Assembly (NCBI GenBank): GCA_000091205.1
Contig: AP006491.2
Reading direction: 5' to 3' (one strand)
DNA from: Cyanidioschyzon merolae
Lineage: Eukaryota
Length of the DNA: 64,000 bases
Shown here: piece after piece, positions 1 to 62,448 of the stretch
Layout of the letters: every line of letters begins with the position of its first letter
Numbering within the stretch: position 1 is the first letter of the stretch
Made by a program: the position numbers and the translations under genes
Notes under the pieces: model-generated
The model's database searches: none
What the model saw: only the letters and a program-made list of their open reading frames with translations
What the model was told of the DNA's origin: nothing

Positions 1-1665
1 GCTCGGGTGTCGCGTCTCCCGCGCTGGCCCCTGTGGCTTGATCCGCTGACACCTCTGCGGCCGCGCTGTCACCAGCAGCCACACCTGCCACCAAACCCAG
101 ACCTATGTTCAGGTGAGTCGTGATTGCTCCCAACGCGAGACATATAGCCAAAATAAACAGAATAGGACGCCCAAACTTTACCATACTACCTTCCCTCTAG
201 GCACTCAACGACTGTTGTCGATAACGAGCGTGCACCAGCGCACAGCGCAGAAGCATCGATTCGCTTCCGCCGCGCACGCATGAGAGGCACCCGCGCGTGC
301 ATCCATCGTCCTGCATGGAGGACGTGTCACGCGCGTGCGGATGCAATCGGGGGCGTAGGCATCGCTGCGGGGATGGGGGGGGGCCTAAAGCGGCATCGCG
401 CCCCCGCACTCGTGACAGATAAACGTGGGACACTGACCTGCTCCGCATGGTCACGTTTTTTGAATTTCCCCTTAAACATTGTTTTAAATTTGTAGCCTCG
501 ACATTCGACGTGCTTTGAAATGGCCGAGGGACTCCCACGTACTTCGGAGATTCTTGGTCGTGCTTTTTTTGGAGTGGCGCGACTGACACTTTTCTGCTAG
601 AAATTGTAGAGTCACCGGAGTCAAGATTATTCGCGACGCTCCTGAACACGGGGTCGTAAAACAGCCGATATCCGTATCCGATGCACACGCGCAAGCCTCC
701 GCGCTTCTCAGTTCCTCACATGTAGCATGCTCAAATCATACTTGCTTTAGGTTTCGGCGCTTCATATTCCAGGCAACTCGTGGACGCTGCAGTTCGCCCC
801 ACGTGATTGACGAGAAACGGTACTCGGCGTCGTTCGCTGACACGTTCCTCACAAGCCCATGCCGAACGTTCTTCGAACCACTCACGTCAAATTAGACTGG
901 AGCCCGTTCGAAATACAAATCATCAGCTCTCTGCGGGCATCAAAGAAACGGAATTCGACAACTGCATGGTACCTCTTATGAAATATGCGATCGGAGGCTC
1001 CCGTCTCCTCTGTTCACGTGGAACATGAGATGCTGTGCGTGAACCGCAGCGACCTTCTGAGCATGGAATTTTCGGACCGGAACGGGAGGCAGTGAAGCCG
1101 GGACCTGAACCCTATCACCAACATCCCTCTACTGCTTAATTCGAGCTGGATGGGCATCGGCGACCAGCATATCTACAGTCTGAGAGAAAAGAGAGCAAGC
1201 CGAAGCAGATGCAGTGCAAATCCTGCACTGCTTGGTGTTCATCACAGCATGAAGAGACCCGAACGTTAGCATCTACACCCGAATGATGTAGGTGGACTCA
1301 TTCAACTTTGTCCTGACTTTGGTACGGATCGCGAGTTGTGGCGACACCAGAGGCGATTTTTTCGGTCTCACAGCACGTTTCCACGTAGAGCAGAGATTCC
1401 CTCGTGCGCGCGTCGCATCAGGACCCGGAAAAGCGTGCATCATTCCAAGCCCTATTTCCAAGATCCACGATCCAAACCTCCCTTTGGAGGAACGGGTCGT
1501 TTCCCACGTTCCACCGTGTGCCGAGCCTACAGGAAGCGTCTATGGTAGTCGTTGAACCGTCGGTGCCGACGCAGCACAGATACAGAACGGCTTTGGTAGA
1601 CCGTTGCGGGAGTCGGCTTCAGAACGCCGCTCGCTGAAGCACGTTCGGCGCTTGAGCAACCTAGT

Positions 1666-4343: not shown

Positions 4344-4579
4344 GACTTGCGGACAGTTCGGGTGATACGGCCGCTTCCAGCGGGTCACAGGAGCGAAGGC
4401 TCTCGACGACCGCCGGGTAAATGAATATCCACGCGCCGATCCCTGCCAGCCCTTTTCGACCGGCCGCTTCTATCGGTTTGCGTTTATCTCGAGGCACACT
4501 TCGAGCGTTAGAAGCTGCCGGACGAGGTTGGCTCCCGTCAGCTCCGCGGGTCTCGTCGTCAGCTCCGCAGGTCTCGTCG

Positions 4580-7762: not shown

Positions 7763-9184
7763 ACTCATCATAATCCATGACTGTATCATGGCATGCGCAG
7801 CTTCGAGGCGCGCATGGATCAGCCGCAAAGCTGTCTCCCCAGTGAGCAGCAAACGCAAAGTCGCTGCACCGATCGAACCCCAATTCCATAACAGGACCGT
7901 GACTATTTTGGTCTCTGCAGAGGCAAAGCATGCGCTGAATCGCGAAGTCCATAGCGTTGTAGTCGGCAGCTCGATTGCATCTGAGAGCATCCGCTTCCGG
8001 GCATGCCTCCTAGACCAAACCAGACCCGCAACAGACATCGATAGGTGCTGCCACGTTCTCCGTACTGCGTCTAGGGGTAGAGATCGGGGCTGAAGCATTG
8101 GTGCCTGGGGCGAGCCTGCTGTTGCGGCTTGCATGGACGCTCATCATTTGGCACAGTTGCTTATCGTGGCTGGGCTAGTCGCCAACACGAATGAACCTGG
8201 ACAGAGGCGCGGGCGGTCCTCTTTCCACTTCGCATCGCATGCGCAAATCCCGAGACCAAAACGATCCTCCTTCGTACGCATGGGGCGCATACTCCAGCTT
8301 ATATTGCCTCGGCTGATGAGAAAATGCTTCGCGCTCTGAATTCGTCCACATCCGACAATCAGTTTGAGGTACTACACATTGAAGCCCGCATCGCCTCGGC
8401 TGATGAGGCAAATGTTCCACACTTTCAAAGCATCCACGTATAACACTCCATATGAACGCCCACGCGCTCTTTGGACTCAAGCAACCCGCGCCTTCCCGAC
8501 CGTTGCCAGCGTAGCAGCGATACCAGTGGATCACCTCATCGACAGTGACCACCATTCATGGTTGCCACACCCTTAAAAGCGCGTTTCGCGGAGCCACGAT
8601 GCTGCGCACCTCGCTTCCTCAGTGCAGCGTCGGCTTCTGATCTGACACACCTGCCAACACCGGCAAGCGTCTGCGTTCATCGAGCGACGTTGTCGCCTCT
8701 GTGGCGAACGCGCATCAATCCAGCGAGTATCGCGTGTCGCCACGGACGCTTCCGGCACGCTGGACGAACGATAGAGCGTAAGGTATGTCCAGTTTCTCCG
8801 AACACAAGTATGGATATTCGAGCTTGGAACTAGGATACAGAACGACGAACGCTTTCCCAGATGCGGATATCGATCGCTCCGTCCGAGTTCCCGAGCCTGT
8901 CAAACAGAAACAACCCAGCGTCGCTGTGCGCCAATTCGAGCCGCGCACGCTGCGGGCGAAATCGCGGCAGTCGCCCGGGAGTCCGGCGCCGCAGCCGTGC
9001 ACCCGTCCGTACCCATCCACTCGTACTGGGAAGGTGCGCTCGACTGGAACACGCCTCGCCTCGCCTCGCCGTACGGCAACATCGGAGAGTTCTTCAGTCG
9101 GCAGTCTCCCGGAATACTGGAAAGTTTTCTGCTGTCAACTGGTGCGTAGGTAAGGTTTTCGAACCGGGCCTCAGGGAAGGTTTG

Positions 9185-20992: not shown

Positions 20993-22648
20993 CTAAAACG
21001 TTGCAGAGTCCTCTAGGTCGTCGTCCGGCAACGCCACGAGATCTCTGTACCCGCTCAACAAATCCGCGAAGCGTTGCCGCTGCCGAATGATGCGCCAACG
21101 ATTACCCTGAACCATGAGCTCGCCCGGTAGCACCTTCATATTGTAGTTGCTCGCCATGGACATGCAGTATGCTCCGCTGTCCATTACAGCGAGACCCGTG
21201 CCGGGTGCGGGTAGCGGAAGCACCCGCGCTTTTCCCAAGAAATCACTCGATTCGCAGACTGGCCCCACGATGTCGTATGTCGCCATTTGCTCGCCGGCTA
21301 CTCCGGGCTCAGTCAGGGTGATCAACTGGTACGCTCCGTACAGCGCTGGTCGAATCAGCTCCGCCATCGATCCGTCGACGACGATGAAGCGCTTATCGCC
21401 ATTCCGTTTGACTCCAATGACCCTACACACCAGGATGCCGGCATTCCCAATGAGGGAACGCCCCGGCTCAATGATGAGGGTTAGGTCGCGTCCCGCTAAA
21501 CACGGCCGAATCGCATCGATGAGCTCCTGCGGGGTCGGGATGCGTTCGCCTTTCCGCTCATAATCGATCCCGAGACCACCACCGATATTCAGGAAGCGAA
21601 TACTGTGGAAACCACGTGCACTGATTTCGTCGATCACTTGAAGCATGGTCACAACATTGTCGTGAAAAAGTTCCACTTTTTTGATGGTGGACCCCAGATG
21701 CGAATGGACACCGACCAGCTCGACCTGTGCTTCATTTTGTCTGATTCGATCCAGAAACCAGCGCAGTTGATCGGTGCGAATACCAAACTTGCTCGTTGCA
21801 AGCCCAGTGCTCACATACGGATGCACCTGGGGATCGATGTCAGGGTTGATGCGGAGCAGGACGCGTGCCTTGCGTCCTTCGCGCTTCGCCGCCGCTAAAA
21901 TATTCTCGAGATCGAACTCCGAGTCGACGTTGATGAGACACTCTGCTCGAACGGCAAGGGCGATTTCCTGAGGCGTTTTCCCGTTTCCGTTGAAGACCGT
22001 GCGTCGCATATCGAAGCCGGCGAGTCGCGCTAGGCGCAGTTCGTTGCCACTCACCAGAACTGCCCCACATCCGCGTTCACGCACAAGCTGCATAATCATC
22101 AAGTTGTTGTTGGCCTTGACAGCGTAGCCGATGATGGCATCCATACCTGCCAGCGCTTCCTGGTACGCTCGCACGTTCGCCTCAATGCGGCTCTGCGAGT
22201 AGAGGTAGAATGGCGATGCCTCAGGTCCCAGGGCGTCTTGAATGTCCTTCACGCGCACCTCCTCGCAGTACAGGAACCCGTCGCTTCCCACTTCGAACTG
22301 GGGTGCTGGATTCTGCACCGCAGGCGCTGCAACGACCTGCATTCGAAGCAGCTGCGAGGCCTGCAGGCCGCTAGACGAGGCTTGACTCTCGACGCCGTGA
22401 AAAGGTCGACGGCACCAAGCCCCGATCGTCCTCCGTCGCCGTCGTGAGCACGCACCCGACCCCAGACGCAACCAAGACGCCGACGCCTTGGCGTATACTC
22501 CTACTGCAAACATAGCCGCCCGAAGCAAGTCCAGTGCGGCTATAAAACGAACGTTGTGACGAGTTGGAAGCGTAGGCACACGCGTCCTGCCGTGTCTACC
22601 AAAAGCGAAATTTGCGCTGCGGGTGCGCGGCGCCGGTTTTTTTTTCAT
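20993..22648 (-). CDS. LYSA: diaminopimelate decarboxylase (LysA; fold-III PLP decarboxylase) with N-terminal presequence
   Basis: PLP-binding motif 'YAVKANNN'. Further blocks include 'HSHLGS', 'LNIGGGLGIDY', 'EPGRSLIGNAG' and 'GPVCESSDFLG...MDSGAYCMSMASNYN', which are typical of DAP decarboxylase rather than ornithine decarboxylase. The track start at 22666 is GTG; the first ATG is at 22648. A ~120-aa N-terminal extension suggests organelle targeting. Confidence 0.85.
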   Translation of the reverse strand: MKKKPAPRTRSANFAFGRHGRTRVPTLPTRHNVRFIAALDLLRAAMFAVGVYAKASASWLRLGSGACSRRRRRTIGAWCRRPFHGVESQASSSGLQASQLLRMQVVAAPAVQNPAPQFEVGSDGFLYCEEVRVKDIQDALGPEASPFYLYSQSRIEANVRAYQEALAGMDAIIGYAVKANNNLMIMQLVRERGCGAVLVSGNELRLARLAGFDMRRTVFNGNGKTPQEIALAVRAECLINVDSEFDLENILAAAKREGRKARVLLRINPDIDPQVHPYVSTGLATSKFGIRTDQLRWFLDRIRQNEAQVELVGVHSHLGSTIKKVELFHDNVVTMLQVIDEISARGFHSIRFLNIGGGLGIDYERKGERIPTPQELIDAIRPCLAGRDLTLIIEPGRSLIGNAGILVCRVIGVKRNGDKRFIVVDGSMAELIRPALYGAYQLITLTEPGVAGEQMATYDIVGPVCESSDFLGKARVLPLPAPGTGLAVMDSGAYCMSMASNYNMKVLPGELMVQGNRWRIIRQRQRFADLLSGYRDLVALPDDDLEDSATF

Positions 22649-22697
22649 TGGACAAAAGGTTGCCACAGGCCAGCGATCCCCGACTAGGCCTTTTTAT

Positions 22698-22817
22698 CAG
22701 CACGCGGTGAAGCAGCCATCGATCCACGCCCTACTTCCAAGTTCCAAAACCCATAGATCTTCTCGGGTATGCTGGTGGTTTCATAATGTCTATCGTACGC
22801 CGAGCCTGCCGTGAGCG
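22698..22817 (+). repeat. dispersed ~110-bp repeat 'R', copy R1
   Basis: The sequence 'cagcacgcggtgaagcagccatcgatccacgccctacttccaagttcc...ctggtggtttcata...gccgagcctgccgtgagcg' is ~70% identical to R2 (25608-25723). It is related to the reverse complement of R3 (29120-29252). Confidence 0.55.
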
Positions 22818-22955
22818 TTTAAAATAGCGCGTAAAGCACCTCTGCAGTCGTGGCACGGAGACAGAACTGGGTTGCCATACCAGAGAGGGCGTCGGCTCGA
22901 GACCAAGCTCATCCATGCCAAAGCACACTAAGCCTATCCGAAACTGCGCCCTTGA

Positions 22956-22990
22956 CCACCACCACCACCAGCAGCAGCAGCAGCAGCAGC
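22956..22990. repeat. (CCA)4(GCA)7 microsatellite
   Basis: Read directly from the sequence. Confidence 0.9.
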
Positions 22991-23054
22991 CGCGAACGCT
23001 TTCCAAGCATCAAACGCTGCATAACCGGTGCACAGTAGCGGCGACCGACGCGAC

Positions 23055-24128
23055 CTAGACGAAATATCTCCCGCCGACATGCAGACGCCTAAAGGTCTTT
23101 AACGACCTGCCCCATACGAATGGCTTCAGCTTCCCCTTGTACAATTCGGCCCTGAGAGGTTGTCCAACAAAGTTGACTCGTGTCAACTCCGGGGCTCTCT
23201 TTGCCATTACTGCACATCTCCTGATATTGCTGGCGGCGTTAAAGTCCCGGTTCACAAACTCCATAAGTTTCTTGTCATTGATTGTACTTACTGATTCAAG
23301 TAGCCTTCGCATTTTCGCCCTCCTTTCCATTTGGTCGTCTGTCAGCCGTCCGTACTTTGCTATATCCTCAGGGCTCCGCTGGCACTTTTCCATATCGACC
23401 CTCTGGGGTGTACAACCCAGTTCATGGTGCGTATACGATGTTCGGAACTCATCTACAGGTATTGTAACAAAACGCCGTGCGCACTCTATGTACGTTCTCG
23501 TAGTTCGAGCTGGTGTACACCCGTTTTGGGTCTTCCAGCGCCCTGCTCCGTATGCTACTACGAGCCTCTGACTTTCATCCTCTTTGAGGGCACTCAACGG
23601 ACTGAAAAAGTTCGCGAACGCCCGCTGCCTCCCACAGCATAGATTCATACGCAAACGAGCACACCGGGGCTTTGTATACTCTTTCCACAGCGCCTCCCAG
23701 TGAGCAGCACGAACTTCACTGAACTCCCGAAAAGCATCAAAGTCCGCTCCGCGGCTCGTCACCTCGCTCAAGGCTTCCAGGTGATCCTTCATTCCTGAAT
23801 TCCATGTCTCAGTTTTCTTTCTTGCATTCCTTGTACCGGATTCTCGATAGTACCTTGCTCTCGAGAACCTCAACAGACGCATGTCTTTCTGACGCAAGTT
23901 GCCGGCAGTACCATCTTCCGCACGTTTGGGTACTGCGATGGTTATGATATTTGTGTTTCCGGGGTTCACACCTACCGCAAAGTCGTCACCGTGCACTTTC
24001 TGCATCGCAGGATCCGCCACCTTCTCATCTTCATGCTTTGTCACGGGCGCAGCCGAGGGCGGAACTGGACGATCCGCCTTCAAGCGCCGATAGCGTACAC
24101 ACATGGCTACTCCATCGGTTTCGATCAT
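23055..24128 (-). CDS. TnpB/Fanzor-like RuvC-domain nuclease homolog (copy A; RuvC-I Asp replaced by Asn)
   Basis: A 357-aa ORF with an ATG start. The RuvC-I-like motif is 'FAVGVNPGNTNIITIA' (N55; copy B has 'GADPGNT'). The RuvC-II motif is 'IPVDEFRTSY' (E227, codon 23448-23450). A degenerate zinc finger reads 'HHELGCTPQRVDMEKC'. The RuvC-III motif is 'FVNRDFNAASNI' (D295, 23223-23250). Confidence 0.8.
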   Translation of the reverse strand: MIETDGVAMCVRYRRLKADRPVPPSAAPVTKHEDEKVADPAMQKVHGDDFAVGVNPGNTNIITIAVPKRAEDGTAGNLRQKDMRLLRFSRARYYRESGTRNARKKTETWNSGMKDHLEALSEVTSRGADFDAFREFSEVRAAHWEALWKEYTKPRCARLRMNLCCGRQRAFANFFSPLSALKEDESQRLVVAYGAGRWKTQNGCTPARTTRTYIECARRFVTIPVDEFRTSYTHHELGCTPQRVDMEKCQRSPEDIAKYGRLTDDQMERRAKMRRLLESVSTINDKKLMEFVNRDFNAASNIRRCAVMAKRAPELTRVNFVGQPLRAELYKGKLKPFVWGRSLKTFRRLHVGGRYFV

Positions 24129-24217
24129 CCCAGTGAGTACTTTTGTTTGCTCACTTTGAGACGTTTGAAATCGAAGATATGCTTCCAGTACGTCTCCCGG
24201 TTTTCACCGGAGAACTC

Positions 24218-24457
24218 CTACCTGTTAACATTGAACTCGGGACTGGTCTCCTTTATGATGCCTTGGAGGACTCTGGAGCTGATAGTCACAAAATGTGACT
24301 TGATGGTGCACAACGGAACGCCATTGAAGCGCTTACCCATTAGGAGAGCCTTCCGTCCCTCCCACTCTTCATGTTTTCCTCTCTCAGCTTCATCTCCGCC
24401 TTGCGTTCGAGTTCTCGATTCAGGAATACGAAATAGAGCAGGATGATGTGATAACAT
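24218..24457 (-). CDS. element ORF2 (79 aa) upstream of the Fanzor-like ORF
   Basis: The sequence '[47 protein letters not shown]...' is conserved in copy B (60832..61182, where it is 116 aa). Its function is unknown. Confidence 0.4.
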
Positions 24458-25101
24458 CTTTTATCATCTTTTTTTTTCATATCTGATGCCTTTTCTGCTG
24501 GATTCGCCATTCCCAAGACTGGACAGTGCTCTTGTACAACCGCACGGATTACAGAAGCTTCATTCGTGCTCTCGTTTGGCGCCTTCTTGTCGACAAAATC
24601 GATCTCATCTTCATGCTTGCGATCGTTCGTGATGCCGTTGATAATCGCCCATATTCCTTTGCGAGAGATGCACGGGTAACGTGCAAACACGGCGCGTATC
24701 ATGAAACGTTCGAGGTTCATAGTCGAATGGTTCTTCAGGTTCGTGATGTACTTCATCGTTCCGTATATGTAAATATGACGGTCACCCCTGTATCGAGTAC
24801 CGTTGAAGCTGTAGAAGGGATGTTTTTCGTGGAGGGCGTGAACCCACTCATTTTCCTTTCGCGTTGCCTCTGTAGCAAGCATGAGGTGACGAATAAAGAT
24901 CATGTCGAAGAACTCGTCCGGAATCTCGACCGTTTCCATGTGCTTCACGTCGTGATACATCTCACTCCCCGAATGCATCAGTCCTGACGACGCCTTGACG
25001 ATGGTCTTGGAGTACGAGTCGACACGGTTCCTAATGGCCTCTCGCAACTTTTCCTTGTACGGATCCTGGATATGTTCAAGAAGAAAGCTTTTCGCCACCA
25101 T
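24340..25101 (-). CDS. element ORF1 (253 aa), uncharacterised
   Basis: The ORF has an ATG start and is conserved in copy B (60284..60825, split by a stop and frameshifts). No recognisable catalytic motif is present. It overlaps ORF2 in another frame because an A9 run (A7 in copy B) sits at the junction. Confidence 0.45.
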   Translation of the reverse strand: MVAKSFLLEHIQDPYKEKLREAIRNRVDSYSKTIVKASSGLMHSGSEMYHDVKHMETVEIPDEFFDMIFIRHLMLATEATRKENEWVHALHEKHPFYSFNGTRYRGDRHIYIYGTMKYITNLKNHSTMNLERFMIRAVFARYPCISRKGIWAIINGITNDRKHEDEIDFVDKKAPNESTNEASVIRAVVQEHCPVLGMANPAEKASDMKKKDDKRCYHIILLYFVFLNRELERKAEMKLREENMKSGRDGRLS

Positions 25102-25607
25102 CTCGTCGTACAGCCGTCTTTCTTGTCGCCTTCGACATAGGGCCTCTCCCGTTTTGATTCTTTCTCTCTTCCGTTTCTTCTGGACTTGGAATTTTTTTTG
25201 TTTTTTCTGGTAGCCGGCGACACTGGGCCTCCAGGATTGTCGACTTGCTCCTACATAACTTTCCTTTTTTAGTTTTTTTAAAAAGAATACTCTTTAAACG
25301 CTTCTCTTATATACTGCGAAAAAACACTCGAGTATTTTTACTTGAGGGTTGAAACAGAAATGAACTGAAAACTATACTTTGCTACGACCTCAACGGAAAT
25401 CCGACTTTTACAGCTGAGCAACACGCTCCTGCTCAGGATCACGTTTCCCTTCAACAGCGGCTTACGTGTCGCGTCTCACGCCTGCCTGATCCCCCAGTTG
25501 CGCTCACCGGGCGCGATTCTCTTTTTCATAGACAAGACGTTTACTTGTGCCAGCATTCTCCGATTACGCGCATTTTTCTTTTCTTACCATTTTTTATGTG
25601 TTTTTTT

Positions 25608-25723
25608 CAGTGTGCGGTGACGTATCCATCAACCCCCTACTCCCAAGTTACATCATCTAAACTTCTTCTCTGATATTCTGGTCGTTTCATACGTCCTAGC
25701 ATGTGCCGAGCCTACCGAAAGCG
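25608..25723 (+). repeat. dispersed repeat 'R', copy R2
   Basis: The sequence 'cagtgtgcggtgacgtatccatcaaccccctactcccaagttacatcatctaaacttcttctctgatattctggtcgtttcatacgtcc...' is ~85% identical to the reverse complement of 29163-29252 (R3). It lies just outside the 5' end of element copy A. Confidence 0.7.
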
Positions 25724-28700
25724 ACAGCAATGGCGCCTATAGAACATGCGCTGCAATGCATTGCATGCGCCGCCAAGACCAAGCCCGGAGACTAACCAAC
25801 AAGTCACTTGCAGCCTTCCGAGAAATGATAACGAATTATCAGTACATTAACGAAGAAGAGACACCAATAGAGGACTGTACAATAGGAAAAGAGACCCAAC
25901 CAGATACGGAGAAGGAGGCACAAAGTCCTCATGATCCACTTAGATGCAAAATATCCAGAGAGAGCAGCTCAGGAAAGAGCCCGAAGAAGAAGAAGGCCAA
26001 CGAGAAAAAATAGATGAATAGAAAAAAGAACTCCCGAACGAGCCCATCACAACTTATTCCCCGGAAAGAGCACCCCAGCGGGAACTCAAGAAAACCGTCA
26101 CCAAACCCAGTCACCTGCTCACAGCGCTGAAGATCCGAAATGCCGTGCATGCAAATCTTTAGACCAATTGGCACGCGAGTTTGTAGATGGGAATCAGAAG
26201 ACTGCCAGAGAACTGGGACTGCTTGCACCAGATCGCAACAGTTTCAAACCTCAGTACCTCAAACGACGTACCAAAACTCGGATTGTTGAATGCTACCGAC
26301 TCAACAAGATCCTCAACCGCACCGACATACGCACCAACGCCGGAGACAAGGAAGCGAAGGCAGCGCTACCGGCGCTACAGGCACAACATGAGGACGCTAT
26401 CAAAAGAAAGAAGAAACTTTCCAGAGAAGACAAACGAGAGGATCGAAACCGCAAAATCGACTCCCTGACGGAATTTATGCTCGAGAGCACCAACGAAGAT
26501 GAGACCTGGCGCTCCATTCGATCGAGACTGGACCCACCAAAAAAGTGCCTGGGGCTCACACCAATCGTTTATAAGGAAGCGCTGAGGACGGAGCGTGCCT
26601 CAGTGAATGAGGCCTGGACGGACCACGGCACAGAGCTGCATGAAGACGCAACTGGGCACTGCCGAAACCGAATCTATTGGCACCAATATGCTGCACAACT
26701 ACCGCGCCTCGACCCGGTACCGGAATGGAACGACCCAATCTTCTGGCCTGAATCTGTTCGGGCCCTGCTATGCTCAAGCAACCGCAAAACACCTGGCATT
26801 GACGGTATCCCTGCGGAGTGGATGAAACTGGTGACCCCAAAAGACGAGACAACAGGGACACCATCGATACCAGATGAACCTGACACAATCTTAGGCAAAC
26901 GCCTTGTGGAGCTCATTCAACGTATGTTCGAAGAAGCGTACATCCCTGATATATGGAGGACTGTCGAGGTCGCACCGATCCTCAAAAAGGACTCCCACAC
27001 ACACAAAGACATGAACATCTACCGGACTATTCGCCTCATCCTGTCAATCATGAATCTACTTTGCGCCATGCTCACGAACCGGATCCAGAGGCGCCTCGAG
27101 GAACGCAAGTTCTTCGCCCCAGAACAGGCTGGATTCCGGAGCCGCGATGAGTGCATGAACCATGCCCTGACCCTCATTGAAGTGGCGCAACGTCGCTTTA
27201 TTCGTGACCGACAACCAACTTACGTATGCTTCACCGACTTCCGAAAGGTCTTTGACACGGTCCCGCATGATGCTCTCTTTTTGAAGATGGAACGAGCCGG
27301 AGTCTCCAGAAAGTGCTTAGCGTTCTTCCGTGCGCTCTATGCAGACTCGTGGATGCGCATCCGACTGGGCGACAGCTCAAGAACCCCTTGTATAAGAATA
27401 CGCCGTGGACTACAAAAGGGCGAGCGCGCATCCCCGCTCCTTTTCAACATCTTCATCAACGATCCGCTGAAAAACTGCAGACAATACGGGCTTGAGGTGC
27501 CGTGGATAGACTGGGGAGATGCCCGATGAGGAGCCCTCACATAGGAACCGCCTCGCAGGCCTTCTACTTGCGGACGATGTCGTGCTGTTGGCACCCGCCC
27601 CGGAAACGCTTGCGGCTAGCATGCAACAAGTCAGCACCTGGGTCGATCGCTGGGAGATGAACGTAGGAGCATCGAAGTGCGGCGTCATGGCCATCCATGG
27701 AGACTCGCAGCGCATTCGCAATCGCTCGTGGCGGTTGCAGAATCAGGAAATTCCGATCGTGGAAAACTATCGCTACCTGGGGGTCGGTCTAACGCCGACG
27801 CTCGACGAAAAGGCACACGTCGACGAGATGATCGCCAAGATGCATAGACGTACAGCGATCGCACGTCCATTCCCATCCGACCCCTCTATCTGCATAGCAA
27901 TTCGTACCAGGGCACGAAGGATGTGTATCATCCAGCCTGCGACCTGGGGTGCTGAGTGATGCGGCATGAACCACACAAATGCCTCGCGTCCGCAGACAGC
28001 CGCCAACAGGGCAATGCGACTCGTTGTCGTTGTTTGATGCTCAGTGCAGAGCAGAGCAACCACCGCGCTGGCACTCGGACTTGAACTCCAAATACCCTCG
28101 ATAGAAGCGATAGCAGCAGGCTGCCGGGCACGTATATGGGCCAAAAGGGTCCACCAAGCGCACCTGGTTCAGTCGGAGTTTCATGCAAACCCCAACGCAC
28201 CGCAAGATCACTTGGATGAAACCAACGCATATTTGGCTGAAGCGCCTCTTAGGCGAAAATGCGCTCGAATCGTTCCCCAGGAATGTAGAAGACTTCAGAC
28301 GCCTGAAGCGAACGGTCCAAACGCCAATATGGGAAAGTAGACACGGTACCAGTCGCGCGAGTAACGCCGGCTTGACTCTATACCGGAAATAGAACCTATT
28401 ATACACATGCAAGTACTGGTTGGAGGCGCTGGAATTCCCCGGACTTGCTCGAGGTACCCAGTGGCTCGCCAAAATCCGCGTTGGTGGCTTCTGGCTACCA
28501 GCACCGGCTCTAAGCCGTATAGGAATACTGGAATCGCACTGGGAGTCACACTGTCCCTGCTGTGGAGACGAGAGCCCCCGAGACGCTGACACATTTAGGC
28601 CTACAGTGCCCGCACTGGAAGCAGGAGCGCAGCGAGCTCCTTGGAGGACAGCAGCAGCTGGGCATCACCATGATAGTCGAAGGCCGGACACTCACTCTGA

Positions 28701-29140
28701 GTGTAGCACTGGCAACTGGTGGTCCGCTAACGGAGCCTCAGCGCTCATTAATGGCGAACAAACGCAAATGCTACCTTCTAGGCGGAAGGTCCAACGAATC
28801 GGATGCGCATACGGGTCCAGTGCTCTCTGCGTCTACCCACTGTGGTGGGTTTCAAGCACAAACCCGCATTGCCAACCGACAACAACGCGCTCCATGCATG
28901 ACCAGGAAGGAGAGAGGCAGCTCCCAGAATTCATCCTAACAACCAAGTTTCTCCAGCGTGTCGTGCAGCGAAGGCAAGCCTCCATCCGCAGACTGTCCGA
29001 GCACGAACTGACGACGAGACCCGATTCTACGTCGGGTGAAGCACGTCTCGAGCCGACGCCCTCTGAGGTATAGAAAAGCTGTTCTAGCTCTATGAACTAT
29101 CTGCTCCAGCATTTAAGGCGCAAAGGCGGATACGGAGGGG
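25724..29140 (+). mobile_element. 5'-truncated, degenerate non-LTR (LINE-type) retrotransposon
   Basis: A reverse-transcriptase domain is followed by a C-terminal 'HLGLQCPHWKQERSEL' CCHC-like motif (28589-28630). No endonuclease domain or ATG start is present. The RT region has several frame breaks. Confidence 0.75.
26168..27959 (+). pseudogene. LINE reverse transcriptase (frameshifted at ~27519-27529)
   Basis: LINE RT motifs are present: 'GIDGIPAEWMK' (motif 0), 'EQAGFRSRDECMNHAL' (motif 1), 'CFTDFRKVFDTVPHDAL' (motif A) and 'GLQKGERASPLLFNIFINDPL' (motif B). In the next frame come 'LLLADDVVLLA' (F/YADD box) and 'SKCGVMAI'. The track ORF starts at TTG. Confidence 0.8.
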
Positions 29141-29252
29141 CAGGTACAAGGCACACACAATAGGACGTATGAAACGACCAGAATATCCGAGAAGAAGTAT
29201 AGGTAATCTAACTTGGAGGGAGGGGGTTTTATGGATACTTCGCTGCGCACTG
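29120..29252 (-). repeat. dispersed repeat 'R', copy R3 (inverted relative to R1/R2)
   Basis: The reverse complement of 29163-29252 reads 'cagtgcgcagcgaagtatccataaaaccccctccctccaagttagattacctatacttcttctcggatattctggtcgtttcatacgtcc'. This matches R2, so R2 and R3 form an inverted pair bracketing the LINE. Confidence 0.7.
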
Positions 29253-29421
29253 TAAAAAAAAGTGAGCAAAGAAAAGTGTGAAAAGAAACATACGCCCATT
29301 CGCCTCCACAAAGGCGCTGCGCGCACACAATACAGCGGCTGCAGCGGCTGCAGCATCATCCGCAGCGCTTAACGGCCTCTGTTCGTGTCCTCGGTGTGAC
29401 GATTCTTGAGGTACGGTATCC

Positions 29422-38243: not shown

Positions 38244-41200
38244 AGCGGGCAGCCTGACACGTCAACGCAGCCGTTAGGCACCAAACTGGTGGACGCTTCC
38301 CCCTGTTGCCAATACGTAACCGCTGCCGAGTTGCCCCTGCGTTTGTTCGTCAGTGCCCGCGTAGGTCCTCGCGTGCTACAGCTATAAAGCAAGCTGTCCC
38401 TCGTCTAGTTGCACAAAAATCAGGCCCTGCTCTGCACTACGCTTGCACTGTTTCTTGAAACACCCAATGCGATCTACTTGACCGTTTCCGACGCTGCGAA
38501 ACGCGAGCAAAGCGAATCCCCGAGTTGAACGTTCTGCTGATCACAACCGTAGCCCAGCCACTGAACTGGCGTATGCAAAGCAGTTAAAGGTCGTTCGTAG
38601 GTCTCGTCCCGCCTGAACACTGGTCCAGCTGGCTGGATACCCGGAAGCCGCGCAACGAGCGTCGCCCCACAAGCGGCAGCCGAAACGCTCTGCCAGCGCG
38701 ACCGGGCAGCGAACACTGCGCACAGCGGGATTTCAAATCGCGAGCGCATCATTCGAACTGGCCCGATGGATGGGATCGATGCGGCGGCTGCGGCTGCGGC
38801 GGCGGCTGCGGCGGCCTCCATGAACGTCGATTCGGCAACGGCAGCTGCGGGCGCCAGCATCGACGATTCGGCAACGCCTGCGCTGGGCGGCGCAGCGCGG
38901 CAGCAAGCGAGCGCAGGGACGACGCCTGTCTACCAGCTGACAAGGCAACACTGGACTGATCGATAGGTTCCTGATTTCATATTTTTCAAGGGTTTTGATA
39001 AGTGTATAGTGTCTGCGTTCCAAGTGCAGCGATCAAGGGCGGACGGAGAGAGAAGCAGTTTCCGGATTCTCGAATGTCTTTACGTGGTAGCTGGTTCGAA
39101 TCTTTTTCAGCTCGGACACGCTTTACGTGACGGGAAGGAACTTGTGATCGTAGGGTAGGATAGACTGGGCGTGGAAACCGAAGACGACATCCATAGGAGC
39201 CCTGTGTACTGATTAAAGGCAACCACCGAGCGGTGAAAGGTGCAACGCTGGTGCAAAGGGCGCAAAGAGGGACTTTTGCACAGGAGACGACAGGCGCAAC
39301 AAAAGCGTAGATCGGAACTGCGCTTCAGGCGTCAGACTCATTGACACCAGCCGTGAGCAGCGACATCGGGACTTGAATGCAGTCATGAGTCTCTTTGGAC
39401 TGTGCACTGTGGAGCTGCGTGCACGGAGAGACCGGCGCGTTGAAAGCCTGAGCCACCCGAGGAGCAAGGGAAGCAGTCGCAGCAAATGCCCGCAAAGACC
39501 TGCGTCGATAACCGAGGGTGGTCACCTCAACTCTAGAGTGCTATCTCGGTTGGCCAACATGAGCCCGTTCGATTGCGTTCTAACGTGGGTATCGAGGGGA
39601 ACGCACGCAAGAAATGACGCGTATCTTCGAGCGGGAGTATCGGTAGTGACGGGTTCGTCGTGGACGTCTCCAACGTCCGAAATGCCCAGAATCTCCCAGA
39701 GCAAGTACGCATGGTAGCTTGCGGAACCTGGAAACAAGGCGTGGAATGCTGGACGCTTTTCCAGTCGCTGATATCCATTGCCCAAGCGGGCGCCCCGTCT
39801 ACAGATACGGTCCGTCGATCGAAACCGCGGGGCATTGTGAATGTTCGCACGCTATCTTGACTCCAGTTCGGCAGCGTCGTAGGCGTGCGCTGAGCGCGTG
39901 ACGTCGCTTCTGGAGCACCGCTCCGTCGACGGCACGCTTCACGATGCCGCGTTTGTCAGCGGTTGCGTAGCCGAGCCCCGAGCGAACGTCTGCAAGGCCA
40001 TGTCAAGGCCGCCACGACCTATGCGACGTCCACGGCGTTGCATCGAGTGCAGCGGCAAGCACCGACACCGAGCCTGGTACCGCGGGTGTCCCTGGCATGA
40101 TGGAGCATCCGCTCTGGATGAGAGCCGTGTCCCTACGGGTGCCGGGGCGCGAACTTGTTCACAGATCAAGCGAGGTTCATGACTTTGTGACTTGCATCAA
40201 GCTCGCGTTCATGGGAGCCCAGTGAGACCCATCGAATATACATTGTAAAAAATACGTAATCACCCACGCACGGCAGCGGATACGCAGTCGACGCTCATGA
40301 ATTATGTGTCGCGCTGCTTGTACCCGGCTCTGAGCCCGCGTCTCGCGCACAGGCTACAGTACCACTACTACTGGAACTACCACCACCACCAGCAGCAGCA
40401 GCAGCAGCAGCAGCGTGCACGGTGACGGCGCGTGAACCAGGACAGTGTCCGCAGAAGCGATATGGTGAAGCTCCTGAGTCCACGAATCGCACTGGATTCC
40501 CGCACATGCACAAACACCGCGGGTTTGCCGCCGCAAGTACTCCACATCCTCGCGTGGACGCCTCCGGTCCAATACGCCGTGTGTAAATGCTCGCAAGGAG
40601 CGTTCGCGGATGCGTGCAGGTGCACATTCAGCAACAGCACATCCGATCACAGAAAAAAACTTGGAGGTAGGCTTTTGAATGATGGATGTTTTTCTGAATA
40701 CCCATAGCCATCGCACAATCATCGCTGCCTGGTCTCTGTGTCAACGCTCTGTCGATCAGAAGAAAAAAGCCCGACACTTCCGCGCCCAGATGTTCTGCCA
40801 GATCGTTTCCGAAACGAACCCGAGAGATGTCATACACACAAACACGGGGCTGCAGCTTCGCGTCGGACTCGGTTCCGTTCAGAGCCGACACGATACACCC
40901 GCTCTGAGTCGGAAACACATCGTCGTGGGCCGCGTTCCTCGCAGAACGATCGATCAGGATGCAGCACCAGAATCTTTCGAGCATACTTTAGCTCCGTAAA
41001 CAGGCGGCTTTGCATGCAAACCCACATGATGACCAGTTTCATCCGAGATCGGGTGTAGAGCAGGCGAGCGCGACGATTCACCCCAAACCGGCACGGAAAC
41101 AGGTATGGATTTGTGCGCGAATAGCATTCCATAGTGCACGCTTTTGCCAGGCGGGTAACCAGGGCACACGGGGCATCGCGACGCGAGTCATCCGACGATG

Positions 41201-53300: not shown

Positions 53301-54481
53301 GCGCAGTGCCGGGCCAGGAATAGCTCGCTCACGAGTGCTCGTATTGCGATATACGTGCGCAGATTCGAAAGCGAGCGAGAGAGCGCGCTCACTGAGCGCA
53401 AACCGCGAAGCATATGCAAAGCCTTTTCATTTCTGAATGTGAATCGCTTGCAATGCCGCTGGCGGATAGCCACGAGCACCACGTTACGCACCGACAACGG
53501 ATGCAGGGATGCAAGAATCCAATTTCGCTACCAAGAACAAAAATATTTGCAAACTAACCACTAGATAACCGCTTCTTCTCCTCTTTAAGCGTATGAGTTG
53601 AAAGAAGGAAATGTTTTCCTTGTATTCGAAATTTGAACTTCACGGCGGAAGTTCGCAAGACCCTGACGTGTCTGCAAGACTATTGCTCTGCACGCCTTCG
53701 CGGTGGTAGGTGCTGTGGCGAGACCTGAGCAGCTCGTCCCCAATACAGCTTATTCTGGGTTCAGCGACAGTCAGGCTGTGTCCGGGCGTCGAAGCCCTGG
53801 ACGCAAAGGACTCCAGCGCTTCGCACTGTCCCAGGCAGTAGGTCGATCTGCGTAGTTTGCAGGCTTCCAGAGTTATCTTGCATCCCGACCGCGTGCCGAG
53901 CAAACCACGACTCGCACCGACGTCCTCAGTGATATAGCAAAGCAGAGCTGTTCCCGCGCCGCATCCTCATCAGCGGTATAAGCGCTATCGCGGACGATCC
54001 GAGCAGTCACTCGACGTACGATAGAACGTATGAAGCAATCTGAATACCCGAGATTTCGTACCTTTCATGGAACTTGAAGCCGCGGTCCAGCGTGATGGAC
54101 GCTTTCACGTAATTGAATATCCATCCTGCAATCTGGTGTCCATCGTCCACAGAAACGTCGATACCCCGAATGGGAATCATTTCAGGTTTCCGGGCAGCGA
54201 TGTCCGTTTCCGTTGAGTCGATACAGCGCAGCGTGCGCTGCCGTCCATTCGTCAGCGGCGAGCGCCGCCGTCGTGTCGCTGGCGATGCGGTAGGGCGCTT
54301 TTCCAACGTTCGTGCGGAGCGCTGGCGAGCTTGACGTGTCAGCGCTTATCGTGGAGCAGACAAATCCGTCGGACCTCTTGGCAGAGCAGCGCCTCCGGGT
54401 TTGTATTATTTTGTGAACGACTTGTTTCTTTTCTTCAGGACCTCGTGTTGGAACTTGTAACTTGGAAAGCACTGGTGAATT

Positions 54482-58154: not shown

Positions 58155-60283
58155 GAAAGGGATCTATTGCTTACAAACGCAGAGAGTTCACTCTGACGGT
58201 GAACATGATCAAAACTGCTCGCTACCACGAAGTCCGGGGCTCACGCTGCCGCTACAGCAGAGCGCACCAGCGGCGCAGCAGCAGCAGCAGATCGTGGATG
58301 CGTGCGCGCAGGTGGCGCCCCGCCTCGAAGCATATACTCCATGAAAACGGAAGACTGAACTGCTCGCTGTGTTCCTGATATTCTTTTTCGTTTGTTTCCA
58401 AAGTTTTTTTTACTAGATACAAATCCACGACATACTCAGTGCAGTGATGAGGGACTAACGGACTCGTACGTAGATTTTGGATTTCCGGTGGTGTTTTCGG
58501 AGAGGCTCGTTCGATGTTTTGCCGCCGGAGTTCTGGACGTCACCGGGCTCAAGGTAATTCGGGAATTCATGGAATAAGGATTCGTAGAATAACCGATATC
58601 GCTATCCGATTCATTCGCACTAGCCTCAACGGTTGTCCCTTCCTTAAACGTAAGACGCTCGAATCACGCGCTCTTCAGATTACCGATCGATCTGTGTTGA
58701 AGCAACTCGCGCGCGCAGCAGTGCATGCCGTTTGGTTGACGACGAATACAAGTCGCTGTGCTCCCTTGGCGACTTGTTCACAAGCTCATGTCGTGTGTTC
58801 GTTGAACTTGTTATGTCTAATACTAGATTAAGTTCGGAAAACCAATCCTTTCCTCGTTGTGGCCTTCCGCCAAGCGGTGCGCATCAGCAGCATGATACCT
58901 TTTAAAAAATATGCTCACGGAGGCTGTCGTCTCTTCTTTTTACGTGGATGAGGGTCTTGGGCTCAGACTTTAGTCACTGTAGCGATCCCTTCGAGTCGAG
59001 ATCGTCGCAGGATCGAAATTTCTAGGCTTGAACTCCGGCCTGGATTCTCCTTCCGCTTCTTGTTCTATCATGCACAACATCGCATGCCACAAACCTTTTA
59101 TCGAAAGGAAGAGCGTACGCCTGTGCATGCAGCGAATGCAAAACTCGCCGAGGGGACCACGAAGAAAAAACCCGTGATTCCATTTTTTTCAATTTTTTAC
59201 AAAACGTTTACCCTGGTCGGTGATCCATCTACTTTCAAGTTCCATTACCCATACGTCTTCTTGCATATGCTGGTTGTTTCGTAGGTTCTATCGTGCGCGG
59301 TGGCTCCCGCTAGCGCCCACTGTAGCGCCTATTGCGTCGGTGCGGTCATAGCACGTAGACAGAACAGCCTAGGCTTACCATTGAACACGCTGCGACCAGG
59401 GCGATGCCCAGACGCAGCCTAGCTACCTTCACTCCCAGAATAAACTGCGTTGCGGACGAGTTGCTCAGATTTCACTAAAACACCTGCCACTGCTGAGTCG
59501 AACGGAGCACGAGCCTGGCAGACTCGCCCGGCTCGCGTGATCTTCTACCTATTACGTAAAATTTTTCCAATTCGGAAACCTTTTCTCTCCATTCGCGTTT
59601 TTTGTAGAGGGGCAAAGCAAGATACTTATATGCTCGTGAACCGTACGTCTGTGTTCTTTATTTTAAATAGCGCGCTCGATACGCGCACCTGGGCGATCAG
59701 GCCGTCACGAGATACGGCGCGAATATAGCCGTTGAAGGGAAACGCGACTAGGACAACGCGTTTTCCTGGTAGGGGACATGAGACTCCAGATTAGGTGCGC
59801 GCACTGTTGCTGGGGGCCTTGGCGAACGTATGACAACGGCATCGCATGGCGAAATAAAGTGTGTAGATCCAACGAACAAGTTGGATTCGCGATGTAGTCG
59901 TAGCAAGGCATAGTTTTCGGTTCATTCGTGTTTCAAACCTCAAACAAGTGTATTCAAGTGTTTTTTCCCACTATATGACATAAGCGTTCAAAAAGCGTTC
60001 TTTTTCAAAAAAAAAATAAAAAAGGAAAAGTTATCAAAATGCAAGTCGACGATCCTGGAGGCCAGGTGTCGCTGGCTGCCAGAAAAAAAAACAAAAAACA
60101 GTACCGAGTCCAGAAGAACGGGAGAAGACGAAGAAGCAAAGGTAGGAGGTCCTACGTCAAAGGCTGCAAGAAAGACGACACTATAACGAGCTGGTTGTGA
60201 AAGCCTGTCTTCTTGGACAGATCAAGGTTCCGTGCAAGAAAAAGTTATGAGGTGCCATTCGAAACCGTTTTGAGCCGAACTCC

Positions 60284-60825
60284 ATGACTGTAATAAACGC
60301 GTCGTCAGGACTGATGCATTTGGCGAAGGAGATGTATCGCGACGTGACGCACATGGAAACGGTCGAGATTCCGGACGAGTTCTTCGACTTGACCTTTATT
60401 CGTCACCTGATGCTTGCTACAGAGGAAACGCGAAAGGAAATGAGCGGGTTGACGCCCTCCACGAAAAACATCCCTTTTACAGCTTCAACGGTACTCGATA
60501 CAGGGATGATCGTCATATTTACATATACGGAACGATGAAGTACATCACGAACCTGAAGAACCATTCGACTATGAACCTCGAACGTTTCATGATACGCACC
60601 GTGTTTGCACGATACCCGTGCATCTCTCGCAAAGGAATATGGGCGATTATCACTGGCATCACGAACGATCGCAAGCATGAAGATGAGATCGATTTTGTCG
60701 ACAAGAAGGCGCCAAACGAGAGCACGAATGAAGCTTCTGTAATCCGTGCGGTTGTACAAGAGCACTGTCCAGTCTTGGGGATGCCGACTCCAGCAGAAAA
60801 GGCATCAGATATGAAAAAAAGATGA
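60284..60825 (+). pseudogene. element ORF1, copy B (disrupted)
   Basis: The sequences 'SSGLMHLAKEMYRDVTHMETVEIPDEFFDLTFIRHLMLATEETRKE' and 'MKYITNLKNHSTMNLERFMIRTVFARYPCISRKGIWAIITGITNDRKHEDEIDFVDKKAPNESTNEASVIRAVVQEHCPVLGM' sit in two frames. The N-terminal ATG of copy A is CTG here and is followed by an in-frame TGA. Confidence 0.55.
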
Positions 60826-60831
60826 TAAAAG

Positions 60832-61182
60832 ATGTTATCACCTCATCCTGCTCTATTTCGTATTCCTGAATCGAGAACTCGAACGCAAGGCGGAGATGAA
60901 GCTGAGAGAGGAAAACATGAAGAGTGGGAGGGACGGAAGGCTCTCCTAATGGGTAAGCGCTTCAATGGCGTTCTGTTGTGCACCATCAAGTCACATTTTG
61001 TGAGTATCGACTCCAGAATCCTTTACGGCATCATGAAGGAGATCTGTCCGAACTTCGATGTTAGTGGGGAGGGCTTCACCGGTGAAAACCGGGAGACGTA
61101 CTGGAAGCATATCTTCGATTTCAAACGTCTCAAAGTGAGCAAACAAAAGTACTCACTGGGACGATCGAAACCGATGGAGTAG
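60832..61182 (+). CDS. element ORF2, copy B (116 aa)
   Basis: The sequence '[49 protein letters not shown]...' continues through '[32 protein letters not shown]'. In copy A the equivalent region is interrupted. Confidence 0.35.
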
Positions 61183-62234: not shown

Positions 62235-62448
62235 CTATATGAGAAAAAATGGAAGCAGTAGTAGGTGGCCGGTCGAAAAAAACTGGTAGGCGTCTGCACA
62301 TCAGTCGGAGACTTCTTGTCTAGGGCGCAGGTCACCAGTACTGTATACCGCCGGTGGCAACGTTTTTCTTTTGAAAGGCGTTCGCTAGCAGCGTCCGAGG
62401 AAGTAGCAACCGCAGCGCGGTAGGCGTCAAGCCTGGTGGACGGGTCGA

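Follow-up and report, generated by a model that had tools for sequence, protein, structure and literature searches.

A dispersed gene-5′ repeat of Cyanidioschyzon merolae is very probably the 3′ tail of an old L1-like non-LTR retrotransposon family

Introduction

The closest counterparts of the Cyanidioschyzon merolae repeat analysed here are the 'dead on arrival' copies of mammalian L1, with which it has in common an L1 ORF2p-like reverse transcriptase (RT) in the coding element, a shared 3′ end that terminates in a short poly(A), 5′ truncation at varying points, target-site duplications (TSDs) of 12–15 bp and a preponderance of copies much shorter than the coding element. Within C. merolae itself, 26 class I elements and a transposon content of ~0.7% have been reported (Nozaki et al. 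2007, PMC1955436), a count that covers RT-bearing copies alone. The same organism has non-LTR 'retroelement, alive' proteins, and it also carries CMe-1A, an element of ~3 kb in total without terminal inverted repeats (TIRs), the 5′ 635 bp of which correspond to TE-N2_CMe and the class of which was given as 'unknown' (Bao & Jurka 2013, PMC3627910). Finally, LINE/SINE pairs with a common 3′ tail, such as eel UnaL2/UnaSINE1 and the CR1 or L2 partners, resemble the present case in that the terminal ~270 nt are common to a LINE and a short element.

The window that we analysed is a stretch of 64,000 nt of C. merolae 10D chromosome 9, in which the C. merolae 10D proteins BAM80094, BAM80103 and BAM80086 are exactly encoded. 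A previous sequence-only reading had described in it a '~110-bp' repeat in three copies: R1, upstream of a DAP decarboxylase (DAPDC) gene, and R2 and R3, an inverted pair at the two ends of a LINE-like pseudogene. Here we conclude that the repeat very probably derives from an old C. merolae family of L1-like non-LTR retrotransposons, of which it represents the 3′-terminal ~270–300 bp, comprising the 3′ UTR and a short poly(A).

Results

R1, R2 and R3 are present where they had been reported, and their similarity is far above chance: R2 and R3 show 85% complementarity in an ungapped stretch of 75 nt and 79% in a 137-nt alignment (E=8e-27), R1 matches R2 at 71% over 127 nt (E=3.5e-12) and R3 at 74% over 95 nt (E=1.8e-9). 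The orientations had also been assigned correctly, R1 facing DAPDC in the same relative direction as R3 faces the G6PD gene. Size and number were both underestimated. The unit measures ~270–300 bp, and the window contains nine copies, six of them beyond R1–R3; a pattern of 21 invariant bases matches all six full copies in the window against 0 matches expected. As we read them from sequence, the relevant elements are the following.

1357..1624, − strand: C1, old diverged tail copy
8743..8901, + strand: partial diverged tail copy
22639..22912, − strand: R1, older ~275-bp LINE-tail copy; nearest relative 77% identical
22913..25517, − strand: first Fanzor1 element of the CMe-1A family, body only; copies at more than 20 loci (70–88%)
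25521..25816, − strand: R2, separate ~300-bp 5′-truncated LINE tail, subfamily A; nearest relative 87% identical
25828..29320, + strand: LINE pseudogene, L1-like, 5′-truncated and frameshifted, 3.5 kb
29030..29301, + strand: R3, LINE 3′ UTR/tail, subfamily A; nearest relative 91% identical
39672..39823, + strand: partial diverged tail copy
40658..40764, + strand: partial diverged tail copy
53648..54164, + strand: C5, subfamily-B unit consisting of a tail (53894–54164) and a partial 'X' segment (53648–53759)
59125..59672, − strand: C6, subfamily-B-like tail (59125–59404) and X segment (59405–59672)
59673..62400, + strand: second CMe-1A Fanzor body, 80–88% identical to the first

The sequence 'cagtg...' after a T-run, previously taken as the terminus of the repeat and likened to Tc1/mariner ends, is internal, and the resemblance is spurious for that reason: in an alignment of 45 copies homology runs 70–110 nt beyond it. 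The same alignment and the per-copy junctions place the true boundary at a sharp stop, at a second T-run followed by CATTGACAAAACGTTT. Read on the opposite strand, all copies share one end sequence with a short poly(A), ...AAACGTTTTGTCAATG-A(5–9), after which the flanks are unrelated; the opposite end differs from copy to copy. Within the unit, conservation is highest in a 60-nt core. The intervals 22690–22700 and 29252–29260, where a look for flanking TSDs had been proposed, turned out to be one internal A/T-rich tract of the element on opposite strands and hence no flanks.

The LINE pseudogene has its protein-level start at 25828, RT ORFs at 26168–27529 and 27519–27959 and C-terminal ORF fragments at 28420–29073. 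Its RT matches Pfam RVT_1, and human L1 ORF2p is the best PDB match of RT plus linker (8sxt, E=1e-16). The RT ORF is 81–85% identical to the C. merolae 'retroelement, alive' proteins P0022 and P0023, and its distant relatives outside C. merolae are annotated as Tx1/APE LINEs. We found no endonuclease domain in the window LINE or its longest homologues, and neither an intact full-length LINE with an endonuclease domain nor an ORF1 was recovered. The RT, closest to L1 ORF2p, and a Cys motif recognised by eye would be compatible with the L1/Tx1 clade; clade and autonomy are both provisional.

At least 12 other genomic sites have R3 continuous with the LINE body (85–91% identity). The alignments to the window LINE extend back to 26308, 26461, 27633, 28061, 28214, 28300, 28453, 28684, 28721, 28762 and 28796, and some of them, including the longest, stop only at the edge of the retrieved DNA. 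Overall, copy 5′ starts scatter from 26308 to 29161 on the window LINE, i.e. the copies are variably 5′-truncated. Given this contiguity, and given TSDs that start right after the poly(A), R3 can be identified as the 3′ tail of the LINE itself. The window LINE has lost, or retains in diverged form, the poly(A) and the final ~45 nt of the family tail; the G6PD ATG (29422) lies 3′ of R3.

A metagenome scan with the sequence pattern matched at least 120 loci. Among the loci listed, which were ascertained via that pattern, 165 profile hits fall at 69 distinct sites when sites are split at 94% flank identity, and a few of these sites may be orthologues from more divergent metagenome lineages. Four copies carry TSDs of 12–15 nt and varied sequence that begin at the poly(A) end (TGCAAAGCAGCCGCC, CATCACGCGCAT, ATTGCAAGCAGCT and ATCGCCCTGCAGG). 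Flank matches of at least 9 nt were found in 16% of copies and in 1% of displaced controls. Most old copies have no detectable TSD, and the TSD-bearing ones are a minority, as expected at 70–90% identity. The copies are indeed old, none being more than 91% identical to another (69–91%, with scattered indels). Searches for empty-site alleles among closely related metagenome strains yielded none, only spurious matches from a flank consisting of LINE sequence; since no presence/absence allele was found, we infer mobility from the anatomy of the copies.

The copies are strongly enriched on the 5′ side of genes. With gene positions approximated by ORFs of at least 150 aa, the nearest host-gene end was a 5′ end in 52 of 63 cases (83%; 69 distinct sites), compared with 54% for random intergenic points (p=3e-6), and 3′–3′ spacers are nearly devoid of copies. 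An apparent orientation bias, with the poly(A) side towards the gene within 500 bp (27:0), was lost under control: the two orientations are equally frequent in tandem contexts (8:8), and on the other side distances are inflated by unmodelled element length.

Several window copies lie close to annotated starts. The truncated end of C1 precedes the ATG (1666) of BAM80086, a GDI-like gene, by ~40 bp; BAM80088, the pBrp gene, has its annotated ATG (8861) within the copy at 8743–8901; and the 3′ end of C5 is ~320 bp upstream of the glutamine synthetase (GS) ATG (54482). In the case of R1, whose poly(A) end is at 22639–22647, the 'first ATG' of DAPDC that had been placed ~50 bp away (in-frame ATG at 22649) belongs to the CAATG with which the element itself ends; the start of the annotated protein (BAM80092, 506 aa) lies 45 codons downstream, at ~22514, ~125 bp past the end of R1.

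We read R1 and R2 as separate, older, tail-only 5′-truncated insertions on the − strand. R2 stands head-to-head with the LINE, and its poly(A) end (~25518–25535) abuts position 1 of the Fanzor element. Twin priming was considered for this head-to-head pair and rejected, since R2 duplicates the same 3′ region, has only ~80% identity with R3 and is lacking in the sister strain. R2 is also not part of the LINE 5′ region: longer homologues map from 25828 onward only. In the sister strain L089 the orthologous LINE (96.8% identical) lies beside G6PD without R2 at its 5′ side, which makes the inverted R2/R3 'bracket' coincidental; a different Fanzor copy (82% identical) is joined differently to that same LINE.

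While tail copies are present in strains that are 97–99% identical, a syntenic 21-kb Cyanidiococcus locus has none. C5 is absent from the syntenic Cyanidiococcus GS spacer, and the second Fanzor element from the Cyanidiococcus Pan3–WDR55 spacer.

The second tail variant, B, is part of a non-autonomous element of ~650 bp, the sequence of which runs collinearly with the 3′ region of the LINE. Its X segment, common to at least 17 sites, has a sharp inner boundary, and one B-unit copy (c61) carries a 12-nt TSD. B units also occur at the 5′ end of some CMe-1A copies; C6, a TE-N2_CMe-like unit that lies 5′ of the second Fanzor element, is one in the window. The B unit is probably TE-N2_CMe: its length, the way its copies behave and where it sits with respect to the Fanzor body agree with the published description (PMC3627910).

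The first Fanzor element has split ORFs (24340–25101 and 23055–24128), a 5′ terminus at 25517 that reads ATCGCGCCCGGTGAGCGC... and a hairpin-like 3′ terminus (~23010–23050). Its Fanzor-like ORFs gave no Pfam match at E≤1 and no PDB match by phmmer, and the putative Fanzor assignment is based on the literature description (PMC3627910) and on RuvC-like motifs recognised by eye. CMe-1A elements have their own recurrent termini and are found elsewhere with other neighbours, without an R-type pair. At no fewer than five independent junctions, a poly(A) end of differing length and subfamily lies exactly at Fanzor position 1. Complete [tail–X–Fanzor] units have no TSDs, only chance 6–7-mers.

Discussion

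The dispersed repeat is ordinary transposon debris of a known kind. Its copies would have arisen by target-primed reverse transcription, in which copying of the element RNA begins at its 3′ end, at a nick in the target; an early stop of synthesis would leave insertions with a common 3′ end, varied 5′ truncation and short flanking TSDs. The B unit would have been mobilised in trans by the LINE machinery, presumably via the common tail. Insertion preference and selective retention are both possible causes of the gene-5′ enrichment. The copies now have the appearance of inert relics that lie mostly in promoter-side spacers of a compact genome.

The sequence-only reading had offered instead a MITE or TIR-type DNA transposon with 'CAGTG' ends, Tc1/mariner-like and split by the LINE, so that R2 and R3 would be its inverted ends. 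The two segments do lie at both LINE ends as mutually inverted sequences of 79–85% identity, but R3 is contiguous with the LINE body at a dozen or more other sites, single copies show the poly(A) end and TSDs typical of retroposition, and the LINE of the sister strain does without R2. The supposed ends are internal in all copies, and R2 and R3 differ in nearest relative and in age (87% versus 91%). In place of TIRs at both ends, the unit has a poly(A) at one and a variable boundary at the other, and its TSDs are varied rather than a fixed short TA. Genome-wide we saw no terminal-inverted organisation of copies, an outcome that the earlier reading itself had named as counting against it; we regard a split DNA transposon as extremely improbable. 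Even less weight can be given to R1 and R3 as the TIRs of a ~6.5-kb composite transposon carrying the Fanzor unit and the LINE. Both elements are indeed enclosed by these two inverted segments, yet the differing ages of R1, R2 and R3 (nearest relatives 77%, 87% and 91%) and the Fanzor element's own fixed termini, with which it recurs elsewhere among other neighbours, refute such a unit; L089 joins another Fanzor copy (82%) to the same LINE in a different way, and no second instance of the R1–R3 arrangement exists among 126 loci. Short, abundant units of fairly uniform length might also be a small structured RNA gene family or a classical pol III SINE with a tRNA, 7SL or 5S head. However, neither Rfam at the gathering threshold nor ARAGORN, run on the whole window including two B units, returned any family, tRNA-like sequence or pol III-type head. 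Nor does the unit have a foreign head, given its collinearity with the 3′ region of the LINE. With six copies RNAalifold predicted a weak structure on both strands (−5 to −9 kcal/mol; covariation term positive), and with 48 copies it predicted no pairs. We consider an RNA gene or SINE origin highly unlikely.

The description of the repeat as a recurrent promoter-proximal element holds, in view of the 83% of copies nearest a gene 5′ end, against 54% of random intergenic points; the functional counterpart of that description fares less well. A cis-regulatory module, possibly derived or co-opted from a transposable element (TE) and having promoter, 5′ UTR or insulator/terminator activity, would fit the gene-5′ enrichment and near-absence from 3′–3′ spacers, the positions of C1 and of the pBrp ATG, and the conservation of the 60-nt core. 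Against it, neither orientation prevails in tandem contexts, and in Cyanidiococcus the orthologous GS and Pan3/WDR55 spacers are wholly without copies. The degree of divergence and the scattered indels are those expected for neutral decay, and the core could equally be the RT-recognition part of the LINE tail. On balance, such a function seems improbable. A mechanistic tie between the LINE-type tail and CMe-1A can be imagined in two versions: either [tail B–X–Fanzor] spreads by LINE-mediated retrotransposition of a Fanzor-antisense transcript, suggested by the exact coincidence of its outer boundary with the poly(A) end, or Fanzor bodies become attached to LINE-type poly(A) ends in a site-specific manner. 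Together with the related reading that the LINE integrates preferentially at pol II promoter/TSS regions, these proposals are speculative and, taken jointly, rather unlikely. A processed retrocopy of Fanzor mRNA, or a template switch from a polyadenylated Fanzor transcript, was rejected in view of the conserved hairpin-like Fanzor 3′ end, which has no A-run.

As the tail of an L1-like family, the repeat differs from mammalian L1 in residing in a very compact genome, in the age of its copies and in a LINE for which neither endonuclease domain nor ORF1 was recovered. The tail is, moreover, common to a non-autonomous element, which suggests that recognition may be tail-specific ('stringent') and not poly(A)-only. 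Unlike the short partners in UnaL2/UnaSINE1-type pairs, the B unit has no pol III-type head and resembles a derivative of the LINE 3′ region, and a recognition stem-loop is not demonstrable in the C. merolae tail. TE-N2_CMe/CMe-1A agrees with what we see in the form of a ~650-bp tail B plus X unit, solo or 5′ of ~2.5-kb Fanzor bodies. Its class had been left as unknown; the unit seen here terminates on its outer side in a poly(A)-bearing tail of LINE type, and this tail, together with the TSDs of some copies, points to a retroposon.

The significance of the repeat is modest: debris of this kind is to be expected from a LINE family that was already on record for the C. merolae genome. Tail-only copies are nevertheless far more numerous than the RT-bearing ones counted previously (PMC1955436): extrapolation, as opposed to measurement, from nine copies per 64 kb gives ~2,000 genome-wide. 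A density of ~1 tail copy per 7–9 kb, as extrapolated from the window and locus flanks, would raise the TE-derived share of the genome by a few percent. This DNA would be concentrated on the promoter side of genes, in an organism that serves as a model for promoter and gene-targeting studies. Finally, it is through this tail that the 'unclassified' TE-N2_CMe/CMe-1A Fanzor elements are connected to a LINE, and this connection is a testable lead on how the Fanzor family reached 150–250 copies.

Repeat copies and tail anatomy

The sequence-only reading had recognised three similar segments, R1, R2 and R3, the last two bracketing a LINE-like reverse transcriptase pseudogene (the LINE, window 25828..29320, + strand) upstream of G6PD. 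The segments are indeed present; however, their similarity runs past the extents assigned to them on both sides, and BLASTN and a profile HMM add six further copies, so that the window holds nine rather than three. Without gaps, R2 and R3 show 85% complementarity across 75 nt; over 137 nt the figure is 79% (E = 8e-27). R1 matches both more weakly (71–74% identity, E = 1e-9 to 1e-12).

Copies of the tail (LINE-type 3' end plus poly(A), in subfamilies A and B) in the window
1357-1624, tail copy C1
8743-8901, tail copy
22639-22912, tail copy R1
25521-25816, tail copy R2
29030-29301, tail copy R3
39672-39823, tail copy
40658-40764, tail copy
53894-54164, tail copy C5
59125-59404, tail copy C6

A pattern of 21 invariant bases matches the six full copies in the window, where the chance expectation is zero. 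A metagenome scan with an invariant-column pattern yielded at least 120 loci (1.05 Mb in total); among the loci listed, the tail profile finds at least 165 copies, and merging places with the same flanks leaves at least 69 distinct sites, mostly full-length for the model. Contigs from hot-spring metagenomes that share 99% identity with the window end inside R3 or the LINE, as assemblies do at multicopy repeats.

In an alignment of 45 full copies, each with 200-nt flanks, conservation starts sharply at a T-run followed by CATTGACAAAACGTTT, 70–110 nt outside the 'CAGTG' motif, and on the opposite side it decays only partly and is still present at the flank end. When the opposite strand is read, subfamily A copies have the 3' end ...AAACGTTTTGTCAATG-A(5-9) and subfamily B copies ...AAACGTTTTGTCATCG-A(n), both followed by unrelated DNA. 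Given the sharp edge, every copy on this strand therefore shares one poly(A) 3' end. The T-run preceding 'CAGTG', the motif earlier taken as a terminus, is an A-rich tract inside the tail unit, and the positions proposed for inspection for target-site duplications (TSDs) are likewise homologous internal positions.

The tail and the LINE

Alignment of every site against window 25817-29345 shows the tail continuing collinearly into the LINE body at 12 or more independent sites (85–91% identity), with alignments starting at 26308, 26461, 27633, 28061, 28214, 28300, 28453, 28684, 28721, 28762, 28796 and elsewhere, some of these starts marking only the end of the fetched DNA and not that of the element. 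Because of this collinearity, R3 is taken to be nothing other than the 3' UTR of the + strand LINE. The LINE body contains RVT_1 (Pfam) and is 81–85% identical to C. merolae 'retroelement, alive' proteins; its best and longest alignment is to human L1 ORF2p (8sxt, E = 1e-16), and Tx1- and APE-type LINEs are distant relatives. Four copies have TSDs of 12–15 nt that begin immediately after the poly(A), and matches of at least 9 nt are found in 16% of copies versus 1% of displaced-boundary controls. Taken together, contiguity with the LINE, the RT body and TSDs at the poly(A) are the hallmarks of 5'-truncated insertion by target-primed reverse transcription.

The poly(A) 3' end, the contiguity with the LINE, the TSDs after the poly(A) and the internal location of 'CAGTG' together refute a MITE or TIR element. 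The inverted arrangement itself has a simpler basis: the LINE's protein-level start at 25828 directly abuts the truncated end of R2, and R2 and the LINE are two copies lying head to head. Nor is the bracket a structural feature, since the sister-strain orthologue (L089), 96.8% identical to the window over G6PD, R3 and the LINE, lacks R2 and carries ~760 bp of other sequence in its place; there (L089:6039-7001 versus window 25314-25831) the LINE reaches ~200–760 bp further 5'. A composite element spanning R1 to R3 is refuted as well: identities to the nearest relative differ (R1 77%, R2 87%, R3 91%), an indication that the copies arose separately and at different times. In L089 the adjoining Fanzor sequence has only 82% identity to that of the window, compared with 96.8% for the LINE and G6PD. 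With R2 absent and Fanzor divergent in L089, closely related strains thus differ in the structure of the nest of transposable elements (TEs) between the DAP decarboxylase gene (DAPDC) and G6PD, which has been rearranged.

Subfamily B and the Fanzor element

Past their non-poly(A) end, tails of subfamily A either stop or run into the LINE body, whereas B tails run into a shared segment, X, at at least 17 sites. A short part of X is related to LINE positions 28771-28802. The B unit totals ~650 bp with a sharp inner boundary, and a few B copies have TSDs at both ends (e.g. the 12-mer ACCCGAGGTGAT in copy c61). Compared by published description, it fits TE-N2_CMe, a 635-bp element equal to the CMe-1A 5' end (PMC3627910). 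We read the B unit as a non-autonomous retroposon that has its tail in common with the LINE.

The previously noted Fanzor unit corresponds, on the basis of the literature and copy behaviour, to the CMe-1A Fanzor1 family, described as ~150 copies of ~3 kb without TIRs and with no class or TSD assigned (PMC3627910). CMe-1A is probably also the WSV486-like repeat of 253 copies and 3.2 kb (PMC1955436). Pfam and PDB sequence searches returned no match for the window's Fanzor element.

Fanzor junctions and termini in the window and in metagenome loci (L numbers)
Tail poly(A) joined to Fanzor position 1: window 25517/25518; L016:6391, L018:888, L049:1054, L083:11571, L035:1479; also L091, L040
T-run, tail B, X, Fanzor body: window 59125-62400; L125:1387-4656; L093:836-3948; L074:102-2648
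Hairpin-like Fanzor terminus: window ~23010-23050 (- strand); L040:4918, L093:3948, L083:8787

At no fewer than five independent junctions, the tail poly(A) ends exactly at Fanzor position 1 (ATCGCGCTCGGTGAGCGCACCTGGGAGATCAGG...). The tails involved are not uniform in length or subfamily, one of them being a whole B/Fanzor unit, which suggests that poly(A) ends and Fanzor bodies may be joined site-specifically, in one or the other direction. Elsewhere, copies of this terminus follow X, a third shared sequence (L032/L103, L014) or unrelated DNA (L089). At four distinct sites, the order on the Fanzor sense strand is T-run, tail B, X and Fanzor body; this places the LINE-like tail in antisense at the outer Fanzor edge, with the unit boundary falling at the poly(A) end. 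Whole units at these four sites have no detectable TSDs and mostly look full-length, findings that speak against simple LINE-type retroposition.

The Fanzor 3' end is a conserved hairpin-like terminus (...ACTGTACACCGGTGGCGACGTTCGACTTTCGAACAGCGTT) without poly(A), reminiscent of IS200/IS605-type subterminal hairpins or of an omega-RNA region. Near-identical (CAG)n(CAC)n tracts adjoin this end (window 22960-23000), lie near the partial tail 40658-40764 (40376-40415) and occur at L001:11740-11779. An isolated 290-bp fragment at 4496-4784, resembling the Fanzor 3' part at 67–75% identity, is probably a decayed third copy.

Position relative to genes

Genes were approximated by long ATG-initiated ORFs, and TE-derived ORFs were masked. 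On this basis, 52 of 63 copies (83%) have a 5' end as their nearest host-gene end, compared with 54% of points placed at random in the intergenic DNA of these loci (p = 3e-6), and only 1 of 30 fully flanked copies lies in a convergent 3'-3' spacer (31% expected). Promoter-side enrichment is therefore real, and may stem from insertion preference or selective retention. The earlier suggestion of a recurrent promoter-proximal element holds as a description, but ordinary LINE debris accounts for it. The orientation bias of a first-pass count was rejected (8:8 in tandem contexts).

The window's G6PD, glutamine synthetase (GS) and GDI-like proteins match BAM80094, BAM80103 and BAM80086 of C. merolae 10D exactly. 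C1 (1357-1666 region) stops ~40 bp short of the ATG annotated for BAM80086, so the 5' UTR or core promoter of this GDI-like gene probably lies in TE-derived DNA. The annotated start codon of BAM80088 (pBrp/TFIIB-like), at 8861, falls inside the diverged tail copy 8743-8901; among metagenome gene calls the length of this protein ranges widely, from 740 to 1005 aa. R1 ends in CAATG-A(9), which supplies an in-frame ATG at 22649 and the Lys codons after it, lengthening the DAPDC ORF by 45 codons past the annotated start; one protein database holds a 551-aa version (UPI00024AAD0F), and RefSeq uses 506 aa.

Age and lineage

The highest identity between any two copies is 91%, and no polymorphic copies were found among the sampled strains, which are 97–99% identical. 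Rfam and tRNA searches of the window found no match, and the tail copies yielded no consensus RNA structure. In Cyanidiococcus yangmingshanensis, gene order across the syntenic 21-kb locus, from MutS to WDR55, is the same, but tail, LINE, X and Fanzor sequences are all absent and the spacers are far shorter (1.1 kb versus 4.1 kb in the window upstream of GS; 0.74 kb versus 4.3 kb between Pan3 and WDR55). The copies are therefore lineage-specific insertions and not ancestral promoter modules. Both the LINE family and the short element have been published before, so novelty is low, and it is only the junctions between Fanzor and the LINE tail that might repay more work.
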